From Ruditapes philippinarum (Eukaryota): 64,000 nt of DNA. Each line of letters opens with the position of its first letter. The stretch's first letter is position 1. A program made the position numbers and the translations under genes. Under the pieces are notes generated by a model that did no database searches, was not told where the DNA came from, and was given only the letters and a program-made list of their open reading frames with translations. The stretch lies in the NCBI RefSeq assembly GCF_026571515.1, contig NW_026860591.1, positions 1 to 64,000 of the forward strand. The letters run 5' to 3'. Below, one piece after another: positions 1 to 60,548 of this stretch.

Positions 1-1680
1 TAGTAAAGAGGAGGTGCATGGCTTTACTAGCCTGTTGGGCTACATGCTTTCTGGCTTTTAAAAAAGGTCCATTGCTAATTTCCATGTATTACAATAATCA
101 TGAAAGTAATTTAGATTCCTTTGAAAATCAACTTGGTTATTTGAGACGATGACAGTATATCGTCTGCATATAGCAAAAGCAAGCAAACGTTTAAGCCAGG
201 TTTCATCAGTAATAGGATCATTAAGCAATACTGCGGTGGCACCATTTGTTTCGAGGTATGTCTGTAAATCATTAAGGTAAAGTGAAAAAAGAACAGGGCT
301 TAAATTTTCCCGTTGACGAACCCCAACCTCAGATAAAAAGAACGGAGACTGTTCTCCATTATGCAAAACACACGACTTAATATTTTGGTACATATTGAAA
401 ATCACTTGGAAACATTTACCATTTACAGAGGTTTGAAGTAATTTGTGCCATAAACCATGTCTCCAAATTTTGTCAAAACACTGTGAAAAATCTATAAAAC
501 CACAAAAAAGTTTTTGTTTACGTTTTTTAAGAATCTCAATAAGTGCATGTAAAGTGAAAATATGATCAGAGCCAGAATAACCGCTTCGAATAATTGATAT
601 TTGGTTTCTTCAATCTCAAACATTCATCATCTTACCATGCAGCTTCATTAGAACTAAATTTGAATTTCATTCTCATACTGTACATTCGCCCGCTTCATAA
701 TATATCTGAGTCGATAATTGTATAAACTTATTAATGATGTTATTAAGCATTTGTGCTAAAATCCCATTTTCTCTTGAAAAAAGTTCGTAAAACTATTCAA
801 GAAACTTCATTGTCAGTAGTTATTTTTTCCGGCGAATAATTATCGTATTAGTACAGGTGTTTGTTTAATAAAACATATCTTTATATGTGTTCTTATCCTA
901 ATATCTAATTTACAGCAAAAAAAGAAAATGATCTGAATCATCTTTATCTTAGACTTTAAATATTTAACATACTGAAAAACATTTGTTGAAACAAACATAT
1001 AATCTACAACACTAACTCATATGTATATTCCCTTTAATATCAACATGGCACCTGCCATTTAATAAGTGAACATCAGATATGTAACAAAAGTTAACTAATT
1101 CTTTACAAAAAATATTCCCTCTAATACCATCTTTATTTTGACGTGGAATTTCAAAGTTACTACCTTCTATTATCAACATGGCCGAAAATATAATGAAAAT
1201 CATCGTAAAAATGAAATCTTTAAAATCTCGAGTCCTTTTGTTGAAATCACCGCACAAAAATTAAGTCAACTTCCGGATAATCAAGCTGAATTTTCTTCAT
1301 ACATTCGTAAAACACTATTTTTATCAATTATTATGTCTATAAAACACTTACTTCTCAGGTGGTATGTATGTAAAATATATAATGATATCGTTACAATGGT
1401 AAAATGTTAAAAAAAATCAACAGTACAATACAATTCTCATATTCTGAATAAATAAGATGAAATATGCCCTGTTGAAAATTATATTACTCATAAAACACTT
1501 ACGGCATGTGGTAACATTTCTGACATGATCAAAATGAGTATGTGAGCTTAAAAATATCGTATTAACCCTTACATTTACTCATAATTCCACATACTAGTAA
1601 GCAACTGAATCAATTTTGTCATAGTGTTTATTTAATCTGCCGATATTCAACGATAGTATTTTGATATTTACAGTTCCAGG
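1..1680 (-). mobile_element. Decayed LINE (CR1/L2-group) ORF2 remnant: APE endonuclease plus reverse transcriptase
   Basis: Minus-strand fragments: NIKILSLNI (~1670, APE start), CGDFNKRT (1012-1257), SDHIFTL..FIDFSQCFDKIW (~460-570), GVRQRENLSPVLFSLYLNDL (58-405). Many stops and frameshifts. Confidence 0.85.
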
Positions 1681-5900: not shown

Positions 5901-6691
5901 TTATTTATCTTCAAACATATGAATGAAACGCTCGGTCGTATACTTTTTCATGACATAGAAAATATGCTCGTTTTCAGAATGATGAGCATATATTTCTTCT
6001 TCTGCTATCCGTGATCCATACATATGCAGAATACCTCCACCAGTAGGCACATTTCGATTGCCCTCATTAGGCACAATACCACTTGAAGAGGCCTGTAGTT
6101 TTGGGTAATGAGCAAGTGCTCTACGTTCTGCCGTTTCCTCAAGTTTGCTATCAGGAGCTCCACGTTCTCTATCCTTATATGGAACCATTTCATTGGAAGA
6201 TATGTGTTGTTCTGAGTCATGATATGCTCTTTTCTTTACCCCGGTTTTGCCCCTTACCCGGCCATGAGAAGCAACACGTCCATCACCCTTATGTGAAACT
6301 AATGTACTAGAAGATGCACATGGTCTTGAGTCATTCAGTTCCGTCTTTTGTGCCCTAACTCTGCCACCAACTTCACCATAAGGAGCAACGCGTACTTCAG
6401 TTACAGTCGGAAGGATATCACTGGATGGTCTCTGCTGTACCACAACCCTGTTACCAATTTCGCCATGGGAAGGATCATGTCTACCATCTTTACACGAAAC
6501 CATGCCGTCTGAAAATTTGTTTTGTTGTGAATAATGAATATCTGATCTCGCTGTAACCTTTGCTTTTGCTACGGCACCAACTTTGTTTGACCGATAACGA
6601 TTGTAGGTCAGTCGGTGAAGTTTATTGGTCAGACGTTTACCACCATCCATCCCAGATGCACGTGCGGGAGGGACGACATGTGTTACATGAT
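5901..6691 (-). CDS. Claudin/PMP22-like tetraspan gene, coding exon 4 (long cytoplasmic tail with degenerate repeats)
   Basis: Acceptor TTTTTTCAG|AT at 6692. Phase 1 matches exon 3. Open to TAA at 5901. Confidence 0.7.
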
Positions 6692-7802
6692 CTGAAAAAA
6701 TAGCTTCAATAAAAGAATCTGCGAATTTATTTGTAGTTAAAAAGCTGTACATTTGACAGTTGGTTGTTGAGGGTTTTATGAATCAAAGGCGCAAAAACTT
6801 TCAGGAATTGTGTAACATATTTTTGCAGAATGTACATTGTACTTCGGTAATTATCTTTATTTGCAGTATTTCTTAATTCAAAAAGACACTTGTATTGGAA
6901 TACATTTAAAACAACTAGATTTTGATAGATTCAGTCTATTAATAAGGCAATACAATTAATTGATTGCGTGTATATGGGCTTTATTTCAAAATAAATTAAG
7001 ACATTTTTCAGAAATATATGGAAATTTGGAGTTTTTTTTATCAGTGTAACGGAACTTATTTATTCACATCAAATTTAATCAATAAATGTATAAAATCATA
7101 AATCGGCTACCTATTTGTTACACATATTAGGTGTCTGTGCCAGGGGGTATGGACCCTACCTTACAATTTCAATCAAACCAAATCCCTCAACATTTTGAAT
7201 TTTGTCGTGTTGGGCTTTCTGAGATTTTGTTTTTTCTTTTCATGATCCATATATTTTGAAAAATCAACCAACACTTTACGCGGAATGAATTTGATCAGCA
7301 TTAAAACTAAACAGCACAAACTGTTGTGTGACTAATTAGTTAAAATGGTTTCATTTAAGCTTACATTTATAACGTGGCATAATTATTTCTAATATAATAC
7401 ACGCATATATTTTGTGTTCATTTTGTGCCTAACTCGTTATGTAACCAGTTTATTATTGTAATAACATAACTATTCCTTAAATTTATATGGTTAACGCGAA
7501 AAGCTACATGTTGTTAATTGCTTACTTTCTTACTACATACTATTTGATAGTTGTCTATGGACAAACGTCATTACGGAAACAAAGATGTTGAAAAATAATC
7601 AAGCATTATAATTTACACGGCGTTATCGTCATATGTGTCGTGATATAATACATTCATTTTAATGTATATCCTTTTTTGACTATATAAGTAAAAAATAACG
7701 AAAAAGTTGATTTTGTCAAAAAAATACATGTTAACAAACAATATTTAAACCGGCACATTACATTACATTGTGTACACATGACACATTTATTCTAACACCT
7801 AC

Positions 7803-10153: not shown

Positions 10154-11354
10154 GTAGAAAGCACCATTTTCCGAAACAATCGCACATGGCGCTAATGAAA
10201 AACTGGCCGCATCTCGTTCAGCAATTCATTCTTCTTAATCAATTCTAAATATTTTAGCTGAAAAAAACATCATTTTGTAGAGCTCAAAGTGACAAACTTA
10301 TTGATATGTTTGACTTGCTGATTCACGATGTGACTGTAAGAATTTGGAGGGTTATTACATCTCGTTAAACTCTTGCGCTTGCCACTAGTAAAAAACCTGT
10401 CCATCGGTAGCATGTGCGCTTGCCGATGCAGCGATTTTTTTCATTTTATATATCAACATCTCAAGTTTCGTTATAGGTACATGTAATATATATTCAGGTG
10501 AGTGATGTTGTTGGTAAGCCGGAGTATTGGCTTAAAGGCTATATAAGTAATTATTGTTTAACGAAACAAATGCGGCCAGGATTATAGGTGTACGTCGCTG
10601 CAGTCATTTGTTCTTTTTGAATATAAAATCACTCATGTAAAAGATACCATTTGCCCGAGCCCATTGTGACCTACCCATCCGTCGGACTTTATTACGAATT
10701 GGATGTTGCAATAGTTTTGGTCTGATTTACGTAATGGCTATCCGCAATATACATGCATGATATACAGTGCTTCACTAGTGTATGAATACTAGGTAATTTT
10801 ATAATTTAACTTCTCAAATCTATGTTGAGCTATCCGTTTTTAAGTTTTGATGCAGATTAGCTAGTTCAGTAGCTTTGTCAATTCTGTTAACGATAAAAGT
10901 ATGTTTGTATAAGCACCTGGTGCTTACATAAAACGGGATAACTGGATGAAATTAGCTTCAGACGTTGTGGCGCTTATTTTTTCTGTATATAAATTGAAAT
11001 AGCACAATTCCTTGCATCGGTTTTTTCTTTCATTAATCAGATTCGATAGCTTGGATAATCTTCTTTATATTAATATCGCGCTAGCCCGAGAACCCTGGCT
11101 CTCACGATTTACCAACATAGCATACTTATTTGTTTTATCACCAGGAGTCCACTACGATGCGGAACCTCAAATAGTAGAACAGAACAGAACAGAATTTTAT
11201 TTACAGACTTATACATAGGTACATCGTCTTGTTTAACAAAAGATTTGATTAAACATAGTCACATGGCATACGAAAACATACAAATTATAAACATTCTTAA
11301 ATAAATAAACAATGATTAAAGAGGACAAACTTTATGCAAGATGATAATTACAAA

Positions 11355-14300
11355 TCAGTTTTGTTGAGAGTTAATGATTGCGTTTCTCAACGATAAAGAT
11401 TCATGGATATATTTAGATAACTTAATTAAAATACTTTTATTTTGCGTTGAAAGTAGATCTATAAATTTAAACACAGATGGTCTAACATAATAACATTTTT
11501 TAAGATACTGCATTCGAAAACTATTAAAACAAGGGCATACACATATAAAATGGTATTCATCTTCTATGTCAAATGTATTACAACATAAACAATATCGTTG
11601 ATCACGAGGTGTATTATTCCTATTGTATCTCCCAGTCTGTATTCTTAAAGGATGTACAGATAATCTTAATCTACAAAAATAATATCTATATTTACGAGGC
11701 AGAATATCAAGATAACTTTCATAACTAAAATTAAGCTTAAAATTCTTGTAATTAAACAAAACTGGGCTACGTTCTAACGTAGCTGTCCATTCTTGAATAA
11801 AAGTGTCTATAACTCTGCGTTTAAAAATGATAGGGAACACTTTTGCATCAACGCAATTTTCATTAAAAATTTCAGCAAAACCATAATTACAGAGTAGTTT
11901 TTTAACATTTGAAACCCAATTGCGGTGTCCTTTATTACAATCCAATAAACCATCTTCATACATAGTTTTTAAAACAATATTATCAGTGTTTTTCAACTTA
12001 CACCAAAACTTGACAATTCTAACGTAACGAGTCACATACAGCGGATAACGCCCCAACTCACCATAAACTGCAGCAGAACAAGTATTTGCTCTAACATTAA
12101 GCAAACGTTTACAAAATTTTAAGTGGATTCTTTCCAATTCTTTAGATTTCGTGTATCCCCAAATTTCAGACCCGTATCCTAAAATAGACCCAATGAAAGC
12201 ATCAAATAATTGACATAATATTTTAGGTTTGAGATCAAACTTTTTACAATTATAAAACAAAACATTAAGAGCTTTTAAAGCTTTCCCTACCAAGTGTTCT
12301 TGGTTAAGCGAAAAATTACCTGTATAATTAAAAACAGTACCTAAATAATTAAAATCATTCACAACTTCTAAAATTTGGCCATCATAGGTCCAGTTCTCAT
12401 TTTGTAATAACCCCCCTCGTTTTCGAAAAACCATTACTTTTGTTTTGCTTGTATTTACTTTTAATCCCCATGTAGAGCAATATGAATGTAAAAAGATCCA
12501 AATGGTTTTGCAGTTCCAATGGTGACTTGCCTAAGATGGCCATATCGTCAGCAAATAACAATAAAATCAAAATAACATCATCAAATGACAGTCCTGATTC
12601 TTGACCAGTTTGCAAATATAGCTCTAAATCCTCTACAAAGAGAGAGAATAAAATTGGTGAAATTACCTCCCCTTGACGTAATCCAATAGCATAATAAAAA
12701 TAATCAGAATAATTCGAACAAGATTTGACACAAGATTTAACTTTTTGATACATGTCTCTTATAATTCGCAGCAATTTACCTTTTATTCCTAATTTATACA
12801 TTTTCAGCCATAATGCATTTCTATATATACTGTCAAAACATTTCATCATATCGACAAAAAACAACATATAAACGTTTATTTTCATTAACAAATTTTTGAA
12901 TTAATGACATAAGAACAAAAATTGCATCGGTAGTAGAACGCCCTTTACGGAAACCAAATTGTGCATCTGATATGATATTGTTACTTTCACAAAAGGATTC
13001 TATTCTAACATTAAGTACAGTGGTAAATAATTTTGACAAACAACTAACTAATGTTATGCCTCTATAGTTATTGACGTCATCAGTACGCCCCTTCTTATGA
13101 AGAGGGATAATAATTCCCTCTGTCCATTGTTCTGGATAAAAACCAGAGTTTAACACAACATTAAATATATCACATATATGGGCACCTAAAATATCGATGC
13201 TTTCTATGAAGTATTCATTCATTAAACAATCGCTACCTAATGATTTTCCACGTTTTAACATTTTTACGGCATTTTGAACTTCATTTAAAGTAATTGGTTT
13301 ATCTAACTCATCATACTCAGTATTTATCTCATTAAAAGAATAATCTTCACAAAAATTTTCAGCCTCAATATTGTTACAATTTGATATATCATTACTTAAC
13401 TTAGCAAAATATTCTTTAAATATATCTATTGGAATATTGCTATTGTCTGCAGACGACTTATTTTTAAAATATTTCCAAAACTGCTTCGGTTTACTTTTTT
13501 TTAAATTCTCTATATCGGACATCTTTTTACAATAATATATTCTTTTCTTTTTACGAATAATACTTTTATATTCCGTTTTATATTTACACAGATTTATTCT
13601 ATTGATATCATTATTATTTCTATTAAAAACCCTTAAAGCATCTAAATACAAAGTTCTAGCATTGATACATTCTCTATCAAACCAGTCAGAGTTATCTATA
13701 CACGAGCTATCACTAAAATAGACGTCATTGTTAAAAGTACGACATTTACTAAATAATGGATCTGCTACATTGCGTAACACAGATGTAAAACTATTTAAAA
13801 CACTATTTACACAGTCACGGTTGGACAAATCAATATTATCAATAATTCTGTTAAACTCAGGCAATTTTGCAATAAGACCACTGCGAAATTCATTTCTACG
13901 GTCACTATTCCATTTAAACATAATTTCTTGACTTTTTTCGCACTTTTTTGAATACTTTTTACAAGATATTGAAAAAACATAAAGGTGTATGGTCACTCCA
14001 TTCATTTGTAGACTGAATGGTAAAATTTTGTATGGATGAAAAGTTACGCTCACTGGTTAATAAATAATCAATCACCGATGCGCCTCTGGGTGAGACGTAC
14101 GTATATTTACATGTCTCGCCAATTCTACCGTTAACTATTCGTAGACATGAAGATTTGCATAGATCAAGGAGTTTCATACCTTGACTGTTACTAATTTTGT
14201 CTACAGAGGCCCGGAAAAGGTGTTCATCAGGAATATAGTCATAATCGTCTGTATATGAATTTAAACAATCGTGTGTAATAAAATCATGCTTATTACCAAC

Positions 14301-14786
14301 TCTGCTATTATAATCGCCTACAATATATATCGAACCTTGCTGACTGAAGACGGAAATATCATTTTCTAAAAGTTCAAATAAATCAGTATTAAAAACATTA
14401 TATGCAGGTGAATCCTCACACCATATATATACACCGCAAATATATATATCATTATCAATGTGGAAAAAATTATGATCTAGCTTTAACCATATAATAGTAT
14501 CAAAATGATTTTTTACAATTTCAATGCCATCATTTAAACAGGTTCTATAGTATAAAACAATACCACCACTGTTACGTTTTGCACTACGGTGCCTAAATTT
14601 TCTATAAAAATTATGAGAAGTGTAACCATTAAGCAGAACATTACTAGAAGAACATGTCCAGGATTTATATAAAAAACATATATCATTATTCGAGAGAATA
14701 TTTAAAAAGTTAAAACTGTCTATTTTGTCACTTGTTAGGCCATTAACATTCCATGACAGAATTTTCAGTCCATCCTCTGCGTAATC
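11355..14786 (-). pseudogene. LINE ORF2 (APE endonuclease plus reverse transcriptase) with three frameshifts
   Basis: SWNVNG, GDYNSR, VIDY, SDH, NYRGITL, QFGFR, GLRQG, LLFADD, C-terminal CxxC..EDEYH..CP. Frameshifts near 13975, 12855 and 12490. Confidence 0.92.
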
Positions 14787-15758
14787 CTATCCTTTAACTG
14801 GCTTCCCGTTCACGTAAAGAGTGTCATATGCTATCCAGGCTGTATCCCCTTTTTGTCGGTGTTCTTTCAATTTTGGAACAAGTTGTCTGCGTTTTTCTAT
14901 GATTTCTTTCGGAAATTGTTCAAACATACGAAATTTGCTTCCCTCTAACTGTTTCCATTGTTTACGTACAAATTCTCTGTCTTTAAATAATACAAACTTT
15001 GCTACAATGTTCCTCGGATGATCACGTCTTCTCTCCCCAATCCTATGCACACGTTCGAACCTCATATTTAATACAATATCACTGGCAATTTTAAGTTTGT
15101 TCTCCAGGTGACTTCTCAATATATCTTCAGTGCTCTTGGAATCTTCCTGTGAAATTTCATCGACATTTGTAAAAATGAGATTATTCCTCATAGATTGTGA
15201 AGTGAGGTAAACGACGTCATCTTTCAAAGAATCTCTCTCCTTTTCATACTGTATAACTTTACTAGAAAGCTCCGCTACATTAAAGTCAACACATTCAATT
15301 TTCTCTTCAACACCCGTAACTCTAATATCTAATGATTTATTTCTCTCCTCCATCGCTACCCATATTTTCTTCAACTCCATATCGAACCTATCGACTTTCT
15401 TCTCCAACCCGTCTACTTTCTTTTCAAGTACAGTTAAAGAATCCAGACGTTTTTCAACATTGCCTATTCTTCCATTGATCTTTTCTAAATAAGCCAATAT
15501 GTCGGCGTTAGTCGGGTCTCTCTTTTCTCTACCCTCAGACATATTGTTATTTTCTTCGTTACCAGATTTATAAAAAACAATATCTATGTCAGATTGATCA
15601 CCTTTTCCGTATAATACATTGTTAGTTTCGTTTAAAATGTCACTTACTACTAATGATTCTGACTCCTCTGACGGGCCTCTTGGCTTAAATAGTTTATTTC
15701 CATTATCTTGATCACCACTTTTATCACTACTTTGCCTACTTTTCCGTTTATTTCCCAT
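14787..15758 (-). CDS. LINE ORF1 (coiled coil plus L1-ORF1/RRM-like domain), 323 aa, intact
   Basis: Heptad coiled coil followed by SMRNNLIF..FERVHRIG..PRNIVAKF..EQFPKEI..RR.L..AYDTLYVNG. Confidence 0.92.
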   Translation of the reverse strand: MGNKRKSRQSSDKSGDQDNGNKLFKPRGPSEESESLVVSDILNETNNVLYGKGDQSDIDIVFYKSGNEENNNMSEGREKRDPTNADILAYLEKINGRIGNVEKRLDSLTVLEKKVDGLEKKVDRFDMELKKIWVAMEERNKSLDIRVTGVEEKIECVDFNVAELSSKVIQYEKERDSLKDDVVYLTSQSMRNNLIFTNVDEISQEDSKSTEDILRSHLENKLKIASDIVLNMRFERVHRIGERRRDHPRNIVAKFVLFKDREFVRKQWKQLEGSKFRMFEQFPKEIIEKRRQLVPKLKEHRQKGDTAWIAYDTLYVNGKPVKG

Positions 15759-15879
15759 AAGTTATATATAAAAAACACTATATTCCATCATTTAATTCCA
15801 AAGTACTAATTTTATATTCACAAATAAATGTGTAATCCTTGTTTTTCTATAATTTTAAAGACCGCTCAAAAAAACACAA

Positions 15880-15900
15880 CCGCCATTATACCACGTGACT
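15880..15900 (-). promoter_or_regulatory. Putative internal LINE promoter (E-box CACGTG plus YY1-like ATGGCG)
   Basis: AGTCACGTGGTATAATGGCGG lies 8-28 nt inside the 5' end defined by the TSD. Confidence 0.4.
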
Positions 15901-17777
15901 ATAACATTCAAATAGTACACCTGGAACTGCCTTTCTTCTATCTAAAGACTTAGCAAATTGTTATCTTTAGCCCTCAATAGCGGCATTTAGCGGTTACTTG
16001 GACTTCTGAATAATAATAAACCATTGATAACAGTCACACCTTGAAAGAGTCAGTTGGTAGAATCGCTGCACCTCGAGATAGACATAGCTACCGCTATTAT
16101 TTTTGAAGATATAACAAAATGTCCATAGTGACCGAGAGAATAATGAGAGACAGACGGTTAATGACTCAGTTATTGTCTCGTCATCTCAGTTGTGTATTAT
16201 GATAATCGACCCATTTCAATATGCTATGTTTAGAATTATAAATATGTATTTATGTAATATTTTTTATTTATTTATCGCGTTTGGTCTAATACATTTTTCC
16301 TCTCGTGAAATTACAAACTACTGCTGCCAGATATAAGGTTATTAACGTTTTGTCATGCATATAACCAAAACGAATAAAAAATTATTTCTAATAGGTGTCT
16401 GCACATTGCAGCAAACTTTATAGAGTTATTATTTATTTGTAAAATAAAGAAAACAAATGAGCTAAAGATGAATTCAGCACTTGAATTTTGTCTGATACCG
16501 TATAAGCAAAATTTAAAGTATTTATTGAATTAATATTTTTATATAATACAACTCTCTTAGTTTGAATGTACATATAGTATATTTATTATGTTTAATCATT
16601 CAGTCTGTTGAATGTATTCAATACTTTTAGTTTTAAAATTTTATTGATTAATCTCCATAATGTAATTTTGAAACAAATGCTTGGTATGCGGGAATTCATA
16701 ATTTTTTTCATATAATTATTTACCTTTGTTGTAAATTTGTCAAATATTCATGTACATTTTTGTATCTGTCAAATAGCCCGATGTTCAAAATTTTGAAAGG
16801 GCATTTCGCGCATTTGTTTCAACATATTACACATTATATTATTATGGTTGAAAGTAGCGGTCTTAAGACGACAACAGCAGAACCGTTCGATCAAGAGGCA
16901 TACGTTTCTGTCTTTAATATTACCAATAATAGTATGTGTTTCTTTTTTATAATGTACTGATTCAATCACGCACTACTTAGTCCGAAAGTGGCGAAACGAA
17001 TAGAAATGTATCTGTACAGTATTTCTATGTGGCAGTGACTGTTCACTTTAAAAGGCAAAAACACTACAAAACAGTCGCATGCACTACAACCGAGCACTAT
17101 ATAGTATGTTAGATTAAAAATATAGTATGCTAGATAAAAACGATTTTACAACATTTATTTCCCTTCTTTTTGCTTATGATAAAATTCACCTAAATGGTAC
17201 TGTACCTTTAGTAGTTAACTGGGTCGACAATCGCATTACCTTTGTCCTTTAACATTGTAGTATAATTGACTTCATGCGCTTTTAGAAAGGTTATTCAAGA
17301 CTGGTCTTTGAATAAAAAAAATCTCGCGTCACAGGTTTTATATAGCCTTGGACCGTGACGCATTGGATATTTTTTTTATTAAAGTCAAACCGGATAACGA
17401 ATGACGTCAAACTCCCATTTTGAATTTGAAAGTTAAGCACTAAAATTGAACCTGTTTGCATTTCTTATTGAACGACACCATTTGATTTTGGATAAGCGTC
17501 GCACGCAAATTAAGGCCTTTATTTGATATTTTGCATTTGGTATGGAACATGAACATAGAATGCCTTTAATGATGACCCAGTGAACTTTGTTAAGATAAAG
17601 TTAATGGGACTGGGTGGAGAGCTTTGCACTTTTAAGTTGTGTCATAATTCCAGAATGTGCATATAATGTGAAAGAAACAAATGAATAAAGAACCTTATAA
17701 CTGCTTTACCAATGTAGCGGGTAAAGATGCACATACAAGTTTAAGGGATAGGATATCAAGTCAGAAATCATATTTAC

Positions 17778-26088: not shown

Positions 26089-27233
26089 TTTTCTGTGCCC
26101 CCACTTTAAGGAGTGGAATTTGGATTTACCCTTATCCGTCCGTCCGGTCATTCGTCCTTCCGTCCGTCCGTTCTCATTTTGTGTCGCACGTAACTCAAAA
26201 AGAATTTGGCTTAGAGTCATGAAACTTCACAGGAATGTTGATCAGCATGTGTAGTTGTGCATCGGTTGTTTTGCTTATGATTTTGTTTGTTTGTCAGAAT
26301 TATTGTCCTTCACTTAGTAAATATTTACAATTATCAACTTATGTCGCACATAGCTAAAAAATTATCTTACCTAGTGTAATGAAACTTTACAGGAATGTTG
26401 CATAACATGTGTAGTTGTGCACCTAGGTACCTTCGTATGGATTTATGTAGTATTTGTAGAGTTATTGCCCTTCACGTATTGAATATTTACAGTTTTCAAC
26501 TTGTGTCGCACGTAACTCAAAAAGTATTTGACCTAGACATGAAACTTCAAAGGAATGTTGCTCAGCATGTGCTAATGAATGTGCGTCTGAGGTTTTGCTT
26601 GTGGATTTATTGCCCTCGACTTAGTAACGATTTGCAATTTTCAACTTGTGTCGCACGCAGCTCAAAATCTATTTTACCAAGGGTCATGAAACTTTACAGG
26701 AATGTTGATCAACATGTCAAGTTGTGCACCTGGGGTTCCTCTTGTGGATGTATCCAGTATTACTAGAGTTATTGCCCTTCACTTAGTAAAATCCTTTCCA
26801 TTATGCTGTATTATTTGTAAATTGTGTGCTTGAGATATCAGCCAACACTACAAGAAATATGCTCAACACCACTGTGAAACTATGTGCCTGTGGTTTTGCA
26901 TATAGATTTTTTAAAATTTTGTTAGAGTTACTCTTATTACCATTGACTTAGTATAAATTTGCAATATTCAACTTGTTCATGTATAGCTCAAAAAGTATTT
27001 GACCTGTAGGCCTGAAAAATTACAAGAATGTTATTCAGCATATCAACCTATTTACCTGTGGGTTTGCTTGTATATTTATTCATTAAGTGTAAAGTTCTTG
27101 CCCTTCACTCAGTAAAAGATGTTTAGTTTTCAACTTGTGGCACATGTTGCAAAACAAAATTGACCAAGAGTCATCAGATTGACGAAACAGTGGAATGTGT
27201 GGGCACCCGTGTCCTATGGACACATTTCTAGTT
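26089..27233 (-). mobile_element. Helentron-like non-autonomous (HINE-type) element with ~155-bp tandem core
   Basis: Head AACTAGAAATGTGTCCATAGGACAC; about 6 core repeats; (GGAC)n microsatellite; terminal palindrome. Confidence 0.75.
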
Positions 27234-39377: not shown

Positions 39378-41545
39378 AACAAGAGCCATGTCAACATGGC
39401 CATCCCCACCGAATGTGTTTGCTCATTGGAAGAATGTATATGTAGTAGAGCAGATAATTCAATTTTAAGAGGCCTCTTTTGGTAATGAAAACTGATGGCT
39501 GAAATGAGTACAGATTTGAAACCTATATGAATACTGATGGCTGAAAATAACAAAGGGCAATAACTGAAATAATAATGCAGGGTAGGTTATCATTCTTGTG
39601 TGCTGCATCCCTTCTTAGTAAAAACTATCCACCTATGAAGTTTCAAGTTGATACCTCAAATATTTTTTGAGATAAGCTCCGGACAATATAGTATGAAAAA
39701 GAACAAATGACAATAACTCAAATATTTTATAGGGAATAGTTATCATTTTTGTGCACAGCATTCCTCCTCAATAAGATCTATCCACGTATGACATTTCATG
39801 TTGACATCGCAAACACTTTTGAATTATGCTCCACTCAGGTGAAAAATAAAGTATGAAAAATAACAAAGGGCAATAACTAAAAAATTATGAAAGGTAGAGT
39901 TATCATTCTTGTGCATTGCACACCTCCTGAGTGAGATCTATGCACCTATGAAGTTTTATGTTGATATCTCAAAGGCTTTTTGAGTAATGCTCTGGACAAA
40001 AATAAATTTTGAAAAATAACAAAGGGCAATAACTAAAAAAATATGCAGGGTAGAGTTATTATTCTTGTGCACTGAACTCCTCCTCAATGAGATCCATCCA
40101 CCTATGAAGTTTCAAGTTGATACCTCAAATACTTTTTGAGATAACCTCCGGACAAAATAGTATGAAAAAGAACAAAGGGCAATAACTCAAAAATTATATA
40201 GCAAAGATTTACTATTCTTGCGCACAGCATTCCTCTTCAATAAGATCTATCCGCCTATGACATTTCATGCTAACATTTCAAACACTTTTTGAGTTATGCT
40301 CCACTCAGGTGAAAAAATAAAGTATAAAAAATAACAAAGGGCAATAACTCAAAAAATATGAAAGGTAGAGTTATCATTCTTGTGCACTGCCCACCTCCTG
40401 AATGAGATCTATGCACCTATGAAGTTTCATGTTGATATCTCAAAGGCTTTTCAGTAATGCTCTGGACAACTAGAAATGTGTCCATAGGACACGGATGCCC
40501 CCACACGCCACTGTTCTGTCAATCTTATGACTCTAGGTCAAATATCTTTTGGACTACATGTGCCACAAGTTGAAAACTAAAAATCAACAAAGGGCCATAA
40601 TTCTCTTAAATTTGGTCGCAGCAAAAATTCCTTCCTTTACTACCATCTACACATTAAGGTTGTTAATCCCTGGAAGTTTAAGCAAAATCTGCCATCCGGT
40701 TTAAGAGGAGTTGCATTCACAACATTTCTACATAGTATATAATGAAAAAATCAAAAAAGGGCCATAATTCTGTTAAATTTGGTTGCAGCAAAAATTCCTT
40801 CCTTTACTACCATCTACACATTAAGGTTGTTCATCCCTGGAAGTTTAAGCAAAATCTGCCATCCGGTTTAAGAGGAGTTGCATTCACAAAATTTCTACAT
40901 AGTATATAGTGAAAAAATCAACAAAGGGCCATAATTCTGTAAAATTTGGTCGCAGCAAAAAATTCCTTCCTTTACTACCATCTACACCTTAAGGTTGTTC
41001 ATCCCTGTAAGTTTAAGCAAAATCTGCCATCCGGTTTAAGAGGAGTTGCGTTCACAAAATTTCTACATAGTATCTAGTGAAAAAATCAACAAAGGGCCAT
41101 AATTCTGTTAAATTTGGTCGCAGCGAAAATTCCTTCCTTTACTACCATCTACACATGAAGGTTGTTCATCCCTAGAAGTTTAAGCAAAATCTGCCATCTG
41201 GTTTAAGAGGAGTTGCGTTCACAAGATTTCGGGACGTACGGACTGACGGACGGACTGACGGACGGACGGACGGACAAGTGCAACGCTATATGCTCCCACA
41301 TTGTGGGGGCATAAAAATTAATTTTGAAAAATTACAAAGGGCAATTACTCAAAAATTATGCAGGGTAGAGTTATCATTCTTGTGCACTGCACTCCTCCTC
41401 AATGAGGTCTATCCACCTATGAAGTTTCAAGTTGATACCTCGAATTATTTTTGAGATATGCTCCGGACAAAAATGTCGGACGGAAGGACAGACGGACGGA
41501 GACTATTTCTATATACCCCGCCGCCTTTCGGCGGGGGGTAACAAG
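39378..41545 (+). mobile_element. HINE-type element with ~155-bp tandem core (AAGGGCAATAACT...), interrupted by a nested element
   Basis: Head AACAAGAGCCATGTCAACATGGC; core repeats; GGAC microsatellite; 3' hairpin CCCCGCCGCCTTTCGGCGGGG. Confidence 0.8.
40468..41315 (+). mobile_element. Nested young HINE-type element with four ~167-bp near-identical repeats
   Basis: Head AACTAGAAATGTGTCCATAGGACACGG; AAGGGCCATAATTCT at ~40590, 40758, 40925 and 41092; (GGAC)n; hairpin CCCACATTGTGGG. Confidence 0.85.
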
Positions 41546-43367: not shown

Positions 43368-45420
43368 AACAAGAATTTTTAACAGAGTTACCAAAAACGT
43401 ACCCCGCCTCGGGGAAGTTTTATATAAAGCATAAAATTGTGCTATTTCAAAAGATTGAGGTATGGATCTAAAGACTTTCAGTCAAAAATTATGATCCATG
43501 ATAGATCTGCAAATGCAACAATAAATTTATTATAAAATGAATGTTAAGCTTTGACCTCTTAGTGTGACCTTGACCTTGGAGGTGGGGTCCAGGTGTTGTG
43601 CATGACATATCGTCTTATTATTGTAACTATTTGTACTAAGTTTTTTCAAAATTCCTTGAACTGTGAAGAAGTTATAGATGGGACACACAATATATCCTCT
43701 AACAGACTATATTAATCTTTGACCTCTTAGTGTGACCTTTGAGGTAGGGACCCATGTTTTAAACCTGACATATCGTCTTATTGTTGTGATTATTTGTGCA
43801 AAGTATTTTTAAAATCCCTTGATCTATGACAAAATTATGGACTGGACACAAAATATACCCTATAAAAGACTATGTAAATCTTTTACCTCTAAATGTGACC
43901 GTGATCTTGGAGGTAGGGACACTGGTGTTACACATGACATATCATCTTATTATTATTCATTTTCAAAATCCCTTGATCTATGAAGAAGTAATGGACGGGA
44001 CACAAAGTATACCATATATCAGACTGTGTTAACTTTTGACCTCTAAGTGTGAGCTTGACCTTGGAGGTAAGGGTGCAGGTGTTGCGCATAACACATCTTC
44101 TTATTATTGTGACTATTTGTGCCAAGTTATTTCAAAATCCCTTGAACTATGAAAAAGTTATGGACCGAACACAAAATATACCCTATAACAGACTATATTT
44201 ATCTTATTGCGCATGACACATCCTCTCATTAGTGTGAACAATTGTGGCAAGTATTTACAAAATCCCTTCAAAGACAGTTATAGACTGGACATGACATATA
44301 CCCTCAAATAGACAATGTTGACCTTGAATGAGCAAGTGCAACCTTGACCTTGGAGGTAGGTGGCCGATTGTTGTGCATGACACATCTTCTCATTATTGTG
44401 AGCAATTGTGGCAAGTATTTACAAAATCCCTTAAAAGATAAGAAAGTTATGGACCGGACACGACATATACCCTCAAATAGACAATGTTAACCTTGAATGA
44501 GAAAGTGCGACCTTGACCTTGGAGGTAAGGGTCTGATTGTTGCGCATGACACATCGTCTTATTATAACAAACATTTGTGCCAAAATATTTTAAATTCCTT
44601 TATTAAAAGACAAAGTTATGGACCGGACACAAAATATACCCTGTAACAGAATATGTTTATCTTTGACCTCCAAGTGTGACCTTGACCTTGGAGGTAGGTG
44701 ACCGGTCTTGCGCACGACACATCTTCTCAATATTGTGAGCAATTGTGGCAAGTATTTACAAAATCCCTTAAAAGATAAGAAAGTTATGGACCGGACACGA
44801 CATATACCCTCAAATAGACAATGTTGACCTTGAATGAGAAAGTGCGACCTTGACCTTGGAGGTAAGGGTCTGATTGTTGCGCATGACACATCGTCTTATT
44901 ATAACAAACATTTGTGCCAAGTTATTTTATATTCCTTTATTAAATGACAAAGTTATGGACCTGACACAAAATATACCCTGTAACAGAATATGTTAATCTT
45001 TGACCTCCAAGTGTGACCTTGGCCTTGGAGGTAATTGACCGGTCGTTGCGCATGACACATCCTCTTAATATTGTGAGCAATTTTGGCAAGTATTTACAAA
45101 GTCCCTTAAAAGATAAGAAAGTTATGAACCGGACACGACATATACCCTCAAATAGACAATGTTGACCTTGAATGAGAAAGTACGGACGGACGGATGTTGC
45201 AACATATTGGGTTTAGGGGGTATTTTCTTTGTTATTTTCTTTGTTTTCTTAAGGGCTACTAGCCCATAAATCCTTTTATCACTGAATGAACCTATTGTTC
45301 TCTTTTGTTCTCTTTACTGTTATATAGCCCCTAAACCCAAAATGTTTGCTCGGACGGACAGACGGACGGAGCTTTTTTCTATATCCCTCTTTTTTCTTCG
45401 GAAAGGCGGGGGACAATAAT
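43368..45420 (+). mobile_element. HINE-type element with ~169-bp tandem core (TGACCTTGACCTTGGAGGTA...)
   Basis: AACAAGA head, about 10 core units, (GGAC)n, terminal GC hairpin. Confidence 0.8.
45199..45349. mobile_element. ~150-bp inverted-repeat insertion in the GGAC microsatellite
   Basis: AACATATTGGGTTTAGGGG / CCCCTAAACCCAAAATGTT. Confidence 0.6.
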
Positions 45421-48155: not shown

Positions 48156-49506
48156 TTAGCAGTCGAATTCAATTACAAATAGAGTGTTTGTGTCGTCACA
48201 TGTAACAATTAACCTATTTCTTTTCCCATCAAAGCACATATTGACTAGTTTTTTCAAGCCAAAATCTTTCCCAATTAGTTCTCTGAGGCAATGGCCATCC
48301 CTGTTGAACATAACGATGTTGTTAGATTGATATCCACAAAGGAATACCGTTCCATCATCAGCTATACATGCACCTCGAGTATCCTTCAATCTACTGTCTC
48401 TCAGCTCTCTAATGACCGTACCATCCTTGTTAAGACAAACAGCTCCATCAGATCTATCTGTCACGACCACTATGTCAGAAGTGGCAGCCATATGCTGAAC
48501 ATTGGATTTAAATATAGACTTCCCGTTTTGATCTTTGTCGATAGATTTAACAAGTTTAGATGAAGTACTGTACACGTTAACACCATTTAAGACTGATGAC
48601 CATAGATCACCACAACACATTGTTAATCCAAACTGTCCACCGTTTATTATATCTATAGTTTTTCCTTTGGACAGAGGTGAGCCAATGGAAAAAAATTGTA
48701 TTTTCATGTTGTTTAATTTCACAGCCACTTCGCTGTTACTAACACAACATATACTTGTAGGCCTAGCATCAAAATAGACGTTTTCTACACTATTATTAGT
48801 GTTGAGTCTTTTCACTTTGGTATTGAAACAATCAGTCAGAAGGATCGTACCATCAGGAAGTATGCATATATCAGATATGTAACAATTCAAATTGTCATTA
48901 CTCAGCTTCACATTGATCTTTTTCGTTGACTTTATTTTGTACTGCCTCTGTTTTACAATCTGCTCATCCACAATTCCGGTTGTCACGTCACCTATAGAAT
49001 TTACTTGTGTGATGTCTGCCAGCTCTTTATTTACAGTAAAATCAATAAATTTTGTACCTTCTGCCGTGACCTCTGTTATAAAAGTATTTGCATCTTTGAC
49101 AGTCTTCTTCATCAACTTCATTCTCACAAATTGCTGCTCTAAGTTCAGACTATCAATCATATGCAGTTGTTCCGTAGTTTGCTTCAAGTCTTCAGCTGTT
49201 CGACCTGACACACTAATAGAAGACACGAGGTCCTCCTTCAGTGTAGAATATTTATTATTTAAACATTTTGCTGTCTCTCTTTTCAATTTTCTAATATGTT
49301 CTACAAGTTTTGTCTCTGTATCATCTAGTTTCTCTTCACAAGCTTCATTCTGTTTGTCTATTGCAGTTAAATTCTGTTTCTGTTTTACTGTCAGGGACTT
49401 CACAGTGTCATGTGCATTCTTTGTCTCATCTAATAGGGCTTGAATCTCCGTTTGGGTTACGCATTGTTTGGACAAATCTTCAATCTTGTTTACTCCATTA
49501 CAAGAC
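48156..49506 (-). CDS. TRIM-like gene A, coding exon 2 (end of B-box 2, coiled coil, NHL-like beta-propeller)
   Basis: Acceptor GAAG|G, phase 2; coiled coil followed by ISDICILPDGTILLTD, RGACIADDGTVFLCGYQSNNI. Total ~559 aa. Confidence 0.9.
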
Positions 49507-49766
49507 CTTCAATATATAATGATGTCGAGGGTTATTTCTGATTAGAAAATAAAATTTAAATATCATCAAATATATATATTAGCTGGATGCTAAACTCGAT
49601 ATATTTTACTACAGAAATTGAAAGTAATCAGTTAAAACTTCAGACTACATTTGATCCGATTCACAGGTTTAAAATTGAAGGCTAAATTTCATGATATTCA
49701 TAAGCCAAAAAGTAAACCCTGTATTACAAATAAGACTGATTAAAATATGTTTAGTTCAACTATTAC

Positions 49767-58855: not shown

Positions 58856-60207
58856 TTAAACACCGAGTTCAATTAAAGTAATTGCATTTGACCTGTTACA
58901 TGTCACAAGTAGATTATTTCTATTTTTATCAAAGCACAAACTGATTGGATTTTTCAGTCCGCATTCTGCAACAACCAACTCTCCAAAACATGTTCCATCA
59001 ATACTAAACATAATGATGTTATTGGAGCTATATCCGCAGAGAAAAACGGTACCGTTACATGTGACGCACACACCATCTGTGTTTTTCAGACGTTCATCTC
59101 TTAGTTCTGCCAACACTTTGCCATCTTTACAAAGACAAACAGCACCATCAGAGAAATCAGTCACAATTACTTTTTCAGCAGCGACAGCCATGTGCTGAAT
59201 CGTACTTGTTTTGAATATAGCCATGTGATTCAAATCTTTTTCAATTGTATTGATAAGAGTTCCGTCTCTAGAGTGTACGTTGATACCTTTGCTTGTAGAC
59301 AACCATAAATTACCATCACAATACACCATGCCATAATAATCTCCACTCTTAATTGAAACGTTTTTGGTTTTTGTTAAACATGAACCGACAGATATGAATT
59401 GAATACTTTTGTTGTTTAACTTTACCGCTACTTCATTCTTTCCAGTACAACATATGCCAGTTGGTACCGCACCTACCCCGCAGGAATCGTTTACGTTATA
59501 GTTCATATCAAGCATTTTGACATTGTTATTCCGATCATAAATAAAAAAACCTTTGGGGAAAAAAAAAATATCTGAATTGTCCTCGCTTTGTCACTTTTAA
59601 ATTTTTGTATCTATTTTTTACTTTCGATTCCAGTCTATAACGCTTCGGATTGGATGCTTGTCTGCTATTTTCCACAGTGATTATCTCGCCGAAAGAAAAA
59701 GGTGCCGACGGTAAGTTTACAGTATCGCCGCTACTAGATAACATGATTGACTTTGGCCCGCTAAATGTACTTCTTGCATGTAACGTGTAAGCATCTTTAA
59801 TACAGTTCTTCATAATCTTTATCTCAATGAATTTTTGTTGTGGGTCCAAGTTGGTGACGGAGTTAAGCTTTTCCTCTATATCCTTTAATGCTCCTATTGT
59901 GTTTAAGGAAGAGCTCATATCGTTTTCAATGTTTCCTTTTAACTGAGAGTACTTTTCATCAAGAGTCTTAGCCTTCTCCTGTTTTAGGTTAGCTATGTGT
60001 TTAATCATTTCACTTTCTGATTTGTTCAGTTTGTCTTGTATTTCTCGTTTCTGCTCCTTCAAAGTGGTAATATTATTTTGTTGTTCAAGTATATCAGCCT
60101 TCAAACATTCTGATGCACTTTTGGATTCGTCAATGAGATAGTCTATGTCTGATTGTGGTAGCTCTACATTTGTCAGGATACCTATTGCATTTACATCAGC
60201 ACACGAT
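58856..60207 (-). CDS. TRIM-like gene B, coding exon 2 (coiled coil plus NHL-like propeller); frameshifted at ~59535-59620
   Basis: Acceptor TTTGTAG|A, RSCADV; strong paralogy to gene A (NEVAVKLNN..IQF.S.GS, ELRD.RLK.T.G.C, GTVFLCGY.SNNI.MF). Confidence 0.8.
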
Positions 60208-60548
60208 CTACAAATATAGTAAATTATAAATCGATCTGTATACACATTATTCTTTAATCTGCATTGGGTTCAAAAATAAAAAAAACGATGTTTTTGTCTA
60301 TCATTCAATATAAAGAAAAGGTTATTAACACAATCGGAATTATATATTCGATAAGATGACATTCGAAGAACGTGAGCGAAGAATAAAACATTACGACAAA
60401 TTTTCACATAATTAAAAGGATATCATTAATATTGTGCTTAAGATATACATGTGTTTATATTAGATTGTGTACAGCATATTCATAGTTAAATAGAAACAGT
60501 AAATAATTAGTAATTTTTAAAAAACTGCACAGAGAAAAAAATGATTAC

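Follow-up and report, generated by a model that had tools for sequence, protein, structure and literature searches.

A 64,000-nucleotide stretch of the Ruditapes philippinarum genome (contig NW_026860591.1; the whole stretch is called the window below) carries on its minus strand a long interspersed nuclear element (LINE) in which the second open reading frame (ORF2) follows ORF1 in the same frame, after a single TAG, and has no conventional start codon in the linker between them. Here we describe this junction, its conservation among relatives of the element and the ways in which ORF2 may be expressed, of which programmed readthrough of the stop codon is the one that we consider probable. The element is made up as follows:

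11177..15907, minus strand: full-length LINE, 4731 bp, likely RTE-X, with identical 10-bp target-site duplications on both sides
15908..15917, minus strand: 5' target-site duplication TACTATTTGA
11167..11176, minus strand: 3' target-site duplication TACTATTTGA
15759..15907, minus strand: 5' untranslated region (UTR) of about 150 nt, reaching from the duplication to the ATG of ORF1
14790..15758, minus strand: ORF1, 323 aa, of the L1 ORF1p type, with a long coiled coil, an RNA recognition motif (RRM) and also a C-terminal domain (CTD)
14787..14789, minus strand: ORF1 stop TAG in the context UAG-GAU, in the ORF2 frame, the candidate readthrough codon
14754..14786, minus strand: linker DYAEDGLKILS, 11 codons from the stop to the first endonuclease Trp, without ATG
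14770..14777, minus strand: motif GAGGATGG, pattern GRGGNUGR, at +13 to +20 counted from the T of the stop
14765..14773, minus strand: mini-ORF ATG-GAC-TGA, out of frame and not conserved
13959..14786, minus strand: ORF2 piece 1, encoding the APE endonuclease, in which the first ATG is at 14177
12833..14056, minus strand: ORF2 piece 2, tower/linker and start of the reverse transcriptase (RT), after a frameshift near 13972
12397..12900, minus strand: ORF2 piece 3, core of the RT, which contains FADD, after a frameshift near 12856
11355..12530, minus strand: ORF2 piece 4, end of the RT and C-terminal Cys/His knuckle, ending in TGA, after a frameshift near 12490
11177..11354, minus strand: 3' UTR, which contains AATAAA and a tail of (TTCTG)n

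The element and its junction

ORF2 gives matches to endonuclease and RVT_1 domains, APE first and RT second. Comparison of the LINE with itself by blast detected no internal repeat, that is, no long terminal repeats (LTRs), and read depth, which is close to zero past 15963, just outside the 5' end, climbs toward the 3' end. With APE and RT domains, a target-site duplication, a simple-repeat tail, no LTRs and an excess of 5'-truncated copies, the element is an APE-type non-LTR retrotransposon. The structure model of ORF1 (pLDDT 94) shows a helix 107 residues long together with an RRM and a CTD; its 11 top structural matches are all human L1 ORF1p, the best being the trimer 2yko (E 2.9e-9), and as modelled ORF1 is of type II (L1-like), having a coiled coil, one RRM and a CTD.

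As the first-pass annotation had reported, ORF1 ends in ...PVKG followed by the TAG at 14789-14787, and the same frame then stays open for 275 codons, to 13962. Its statement that no ATG, GTG or TTG precedes 14177 also holds: the first ATG is codon 204, the first GTG lies at 14075 and the first TTG at 13964, while CTG is found in the ORF2 frame at codons 7, 10 and 51. The mini-ORF had been described as overlapping the junction, but it does not reach into the stop; it starts at 14773, 13 nt past the stop, and overlaps the CTG. At a Met content of 1.3%, that of five complete ORF2s, a Met-free stretch of 203 codons has a chance of about 7%, so that a single copy proves little.

The window copy is a broken one, in which three 1-nt frameshifts in T runs interrupt ORF2. 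The base near 13972 is absent from 7/11 and 10/13 reads and from all X7 and X3 contig depth; the base near 12856 is absent from 8/13 and 5/11 reads, and from 73/82 of the depth in X7 and 95.6/228.7 in X3; and the base near 12490 is absent from 5/55 and 11/53 reads, from 111/274 of the depth in X7 and from all of it in X3. At 14666, a Lys replaces the Glu of a FLYE motif found in relatives. This Lys and the three frameshifts are private to the window copy or assembly errors. Among the differences listed, the junction-spanning contigs (record 8 of X3, with three differences, and record 14 of X7, with two) depart from the window at 14666, 14672 and 14794 alone; these positions miss the junction, so in both contigs the TAG is kept and no ATG is gained, which at such low depth lends slight support. 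The substitutions private to the window (11726, 13423, 13750, 14666, 14794, 15545, 15765) are mostly G-to-A on the sense strand of the element, an excess that may reflect sequencing error or directional mutation.

Conservation of the junction among relatives

A profile built from ORF1 only retrieved 80 metagenome loci, which together with the window make 81 sequences. Fifteen of them lack the end of ORF1 and six have no comparable junction, leaving 60, of which 42 have an intact in-frame junction. At 80% identity these 42 fall into 29 families, from five metagenome assemblies and the window, with a median identity between families of 55% (nucleotides) and 45% (amino acids). Named relatives of ORF1 come from Ruditapes, Mercenaria, Dreissena and Mya and the window's remaining genes are animal-like, which suggests a bivalve host; the viral contigs searched held no relatives and the prokaryote genomes searched no locus. 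In the more distant ORF1 relative L042, ORF1 ends in TGA and an endonuclease-like frame lies 758 nt downstream in a different frame; possibly it is an outgroup arranged in the usual way, or else the frame is a neighbour unrelated to it.

Among the 18 sequences without an intact junction, 12 keep the stop in place (10 TAG, 1 TAA, 1 TGA) and are cut short or damaged nearby, one has lost one base of the stop, two are deleted across it, and three are decayed copies with a sense codon there (TAT, AAG, TAC) that are broken again within about 70 codons. In all 29 families ORF2 is in frame with ORF1, a count that is partly circular since the 42 sequences were chosen for an intact in-frame junction. 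For the same reason we do not count the depletion of stops in the linkers (0 in 290 codons, versus 22 and 20 in the other frames), which is true by construction of the set. The distance from the stop to the first Trp is 12 codons in 24 families, 11 in two, 15 in two and 16 in one, and it holds despite ORF1 tails that are tens of residues longer in L008, L015, L026, L029 and L035. In some families a long RG-rich ORF1 tail precedes the conserved stop (L035:1043-1480; P0172).

An in-frame ATG before the Trp occurs in two of the 29 families, in both at codon 10 and within the first endonuclease strand; codons 1-9 after the stop contain none in any family, which differs from a stop-start junction of the SART1 type. 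Neither an ATG in the consensus nor a sense codon in place of the TAG was found, and the in-frame, ATG-less junction first described in the window stands. Counted from the TAG, the frame of the five complete elements stays open for 1139-1158 codons; the first Met is at 102-310, and nothing but the TAG interrupts these elements; L019, for example, is a single 1490-codon frame with one TAG. These comparisons also bear on two routes proposed earlier, a near-cognate start at the CTG of codon 7 and reinitiation through the ATG-GAC-TGA mini-ORF. The window does contain CTG at codons 7 and 10 as well as the mini-ORF; however, the CTG is present in 4/29 families and replaced by a non-initiating codon in 20/29 (CTC, TTA, CTA, CTT, GTT, GTA, CCG or CCA), the ATG of the mini-ORF is found in only 9/29, and six families have no near-cognate codon at all before the Trp. 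Nor would either route require a fixed spacing from the stop, and we consider both highly improbable.

Of 127 database ORF1 proteins, 55 share the end residue of the window's ORF1 and most others end within four residues of it. Gln occupies the position of the stop in six database proteins (P0007, P0062, P0084, P0102, P0172, P0202), which were not taken as natural fusions; they are likely gene calls made under a TAG=Gln code, because the DNA of the L001 family, which P0202 matches, has TAG. Host gene models from Mercenaria, Ruditapes and Mytilus (P0001, P0167, P0005) splice ORF1 to other exons or to ORF2 and are likely artefacts of annotation by which the stop is avoided.

The stop itself is TAG in 25 families, TAA in three and TGA in one. 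TAG is more frequent here than at the ends of ORF2 (25/29 versus 2/6; Fisher p 0.016), and its ratio to TAA of 25:3 exceeds what would be predicted from the synonymous K/E/Q positions in ORF1, of which 53% have G (p 5e-5), although the families are related and all p values given here are for this reason optimistic. Reassignment of the stop codon in the host was considered and rejected, since L014 and L024 use TAG to end ORF2 as well. UAG is a favoured triplet of ADAR, and the amber/W site of hepatitis delta is a known case of UAG-to-Trp editing; adenosine-to-inosine editing that turned the UAG into a Trp codon in some transcripts, again giving a fusion, would account for the TAG bias. However, no conserved duplex was found around the stop and the TAA families would need two edits, so that editing seems a far-fetched explanation.

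The base at +4 is G in 21 of the 29 families. Since YAG-G is the consensus of a splice acceptor, TAG-G might also be read as a 3' splice site through which a spliced RNA links an upstream AUG exon to ORF2, and this would account for both the TAG and the G. Against it, no pyrimidine tract is present (the median pyrimidine share at -20 to -3 is 0.33), the TAA and TGA families have no AG at the acceptor place, and 0 of the 15 joints listed fall at the junction, the reads not being true RNA; we give splicing very little credence. The hexamers UAGGGV, UAGGUA and UAGGAU are given as type III readthrough contexts in the part of a recent review used here (PMC13517186), and one of them is present in 11 of the 25 TAG families, the UAGGAU of the window included.

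Further downstream, the pattern GRGGNUGR, with at most one mismatch, lies exactly at +13 in 23/29 families as against 0.6% of flanking positions, the pattern having been derived from the same sequences on which it was scored. At third codon positions within the motif, G is kept in 22/24 and T in 20/24, both at the floor of the simulation, which one of 172 control columns also reached, three columns having p below 0.001. The motif stays with the stop when the linker gains codons behind it (L003, L013), and in L035 it lies out of frame, displaced by 1 nt; in L023, L024, L040 and L059 the motif is weak. The fixed distance from the stop together with the shift of frame in L035 marks it as a nucleotide signal tied to the stop. 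A role of the motif as splice donor was rejected, the fifth base being G in only 6/24. From these sequence comparisons we conclude that the junction is a real, lineage-wide feature under nucleotide-level selection, and that what lies above chance is its conservation across the 29 families and not the Met-free stretch alone.

Candidate mechanisms for ORF2 expression

The first-pass annotation had offered two explanations, an ORF1-ORF2 readthrough fusion and non-AUG reinitiation. The former has gained comparative support, in the form of the conserved in-frame stop, the TAG bias, the fixed spacing, the lack of ATG and the stop-anchored motif; the latter, in the two versions proposed, by CTG and by mini-ORF, has lost ground. 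We consider it probable, judging from sequence, that ORF2 is made by programmed readthrough of the conserved stop, which would explain together the shared frame, the missing start codon, the TAG bias and the motif anchored to the stop. Most ribosomes would halt at the UAG and release ORF1p, while a small share would insert an amino acid there and continue, yielding a fusion of about 1,490 residues in which the endonuclease-reverse transcriptase is joined to ORF1. With the stop in the A site, the +13 motif would be placed at the mRNA entry channel of the ribosome. This channel is described as holding about 11-12 nt past the A-site codon, and the stimulator of Moloney murine leukaemia virus (MoMLV), in which UAA retains 35-40% activity, as starting at +12 (PMC13517186), values that the start of the motif at +13 matches. 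Because no conserved structure was found, the motif would act as a single-stranded stimulator.

The fold of ORF1 suggests that the fusion would join ORF1p trimers through its coiled coil on the element's own RNA, and such co-assembly would set a low ORF2:ORF1 ratio, as Gag-Pol does. The fusion would remain uncut, since no protease domain was found in the element. In a structure model of the fusion both domains fold and the position of the stop lies in an 8-residue loop, a result that speaks for compatibility only. A narrower proposal, that an old LINE lineage makes its RT solely as a Gag-Pol-like fusion, with readthrough driven by an unstructured GRGGNUGR at the entry channel, is one that we put forward tentatively and would stop short of calling probable.

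Several points weigh against readthrough, besides the relatedness of the families and the partly circular choice of the set already mentioned. The folding of the junction context, suggested earlier as a check, revealed no conserved structure: the consensus of the local fold was empty over four spans, local stability had a mean z of -0.33 to +0.43 in 16 windows, and a long-range partner had no shared position in 22 families, with energies like those of shuffled queries. Type III contexts generally need a structure or a long-range partner (PMC13517186, as covered in part), and as no downstream structure or pairing was found, in searches that did not address pseudoknots explicitly, we do not class the junction as type III. 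Moreover, 14 of the 25 TAG families carry none of the listed hexamers, and the stop is not TAG in four families, in two of them credibly (the L044 family and L059). Among the damaged copies that keep the stop, the linkers of L036 and L037 are out of frame and L054 has a second stop, and none of the 60 comparable junctions is a natural intact fusion, sense codons being present in three decayed copies only. L1 and SART1, the two LINEs that have been studied experimentally, are described as making ORF2 by reinitiation (PMC5972666, PMC5009743). Finally, the runs X23 and X24 behave like proximity-ligation DNA libraries and hence provide no evidence of expression; they are labelled RNA-Seq, and 72-73% of their reads continue into unrelated sequence, mostly at GATC.

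In a different account the ribosome would terminate and then, with no AUG, restart on the next codon or just beyond it, so that ORF2p is a separate protein; the motif would hold or position the post-termination ribosome. L1 ORF2 initiation has been described as AUG-independent (PMC5009743) and the coupling in SART1 as dependent on a downstream element (PMC5972666), in the portions of these papers drawn on here. Such a restart, if immediate, would preserve the frame as well, and it tolerates the TAA and TGA families and the absence of a pseudoknot. However, it leaves the TAG bias and the type III-like context unexplained, the codon after the stop, which across the 29 families is mostly GGN, GAN or CGN, is not start-like, and the known coupled elements retain their AUG. 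We regard restart as unlikely, while taking it seriously as an alternative to readthrough.

Relation to known systems and neighbouring sequences

The junction resembles that of gammaretroviral Gag-Pol (type III, MoMLV) in having an in-frame UAG between the RNA-packaging and polymerase genes, a G at +4, a purine-rich spacer and a conserved element that starts at +12/+13; it differs in that no structure and no protease were found, in belonging to a non-LTR element and in that readthrough is here predicted from sequence. With mammalian L1 the element shares the coiled coil-RRM-CTD fold of ORF1p, a bicistronic RNA and an ORF2 initiation said to be AUG-independent, whereas L1 has a 63-nt spacer, an AUG and a separate ORF2p, and the window element has neither spacer nor AUG. 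SART1 (UAAUG) likewise ties ORF2 to the ORF1 stop and a downstream element, but there the AUG overlaps the stop and is out of frame, and the downstream element is structured. APE LINEs with 2A/StopGo, described in part by Odon et al. 2013 (PMC3708506) and present in molluscs too, also recode just upstream of the endonuclease; theirs, in contrast, is a peptide-driven skipping in mostly single-ORF elements, and D(V/I)ExNPGP is absent from the linker translations at the junction.

In the portion of Martelossi et al. 2023 (PMC10294476) used here, bivalve RTE-X LINEs are about 4.9 kb long, similar to our element. For comparison, the first 400 nt of 13 of the 84 RTE-X entries in its supplement were read by eye. 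Within this sample, S.grandis_64 and S.grandis_39 share the ORF1 motif QSMRNNL with the element, and S.grandis_37 and S.grandis_24 have TAG, 11 codons and TGG without ATG, one of them with ORF1 in frame; RTE-X is accordingly the likely group label, by likeness to these consensus sequences. Other entries differ in their 5' region, where a 2A-like motif is present; S.grandis_54 and S.grandis_13 carry GDVExNPGP near the 5' end by the same reading. RTE-X is not among the 2A-bearing clades named in the consulted part of PMC3708506, so that two different strategies of recoding may exist within RTE-X.

An RT tree of 51 sequences, rooted at the midpoint, places six of the loci and 29 proteins in one group (support 0.997), in which 26 of the 29 protein calls start at or inside the first endonuclease strand; of the 16 proteins in its sister group (0.976), at least 14 have calls that start upstream of that strand. 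Judged from gene calls alone, where callers may write Met for other starts, the pattern suggests a clade marked by loss of the AUG.

The element is thus an ordinary kind of LINE whose ORF2 expression is not ordinary. We found no published description of stop-codon readthrough between LINE ORF1 and ORF2, although a curator note may exist in Repbase Reports, beyond our search, and no paper combining 'RTE-X' and 'readthrough'. In the parts available to us, the 2026 readthrough review (PMC13517186) has no occurrence of 'retrotransposon', PMC10294476 has none of 'ORF2' and does not discuss its expression, and reviews call LINE ORF2 translation an open question (PMC3894237, PMC3708506). The two worked LINE cases concern reinitiation at an AUG-bearing ORF2; here AUG and spacer are both absent and the conserved signal is compact, so that a 40-nt cassette would suffice to test the question. 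Should readthrough be true, LINEs arrived independently at the Gag-Pol solution of retroviruses, and an RT fused to ORF1 is able to retrotranspose; if its signal is indeed unstructured, this would be both a new mode of LINE expression and a new class of readthrough signal. Reinitiation, if true, would provide a natural example of restart that needs no start codon and has a defined cis-element. In both cases, gene finders routinely call the ORF2 of such elements too short.

Elsewhere in the window, 58-609 (minus strand) holds another LINE RT fragment, which is diverged but broadly of the same type (RVT_1, 41% identity to the main element), and a 293-codon open frame at 5901-6782 (minus strand) has no Pfam match. 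A bacterial promoter scan was empty and is irrelevant here. At 48156-49508 and 58856-60269 (minus strand) are ORFs with a coiled coil and a beta-propeller, for which Pfam gives SGL and a weak SdiA-regulated match only; we take them to resemble the expanded TRIM/NHL-like genes of bivalves. Tandem arrays with units of 154-169 bp and multiples of 315-337 bp occupy 26179-26730, 39544-41230 and 43571-45181, one of them beside (GGAC)n, and resemble bivalve satellite or Helentron-type repeats.

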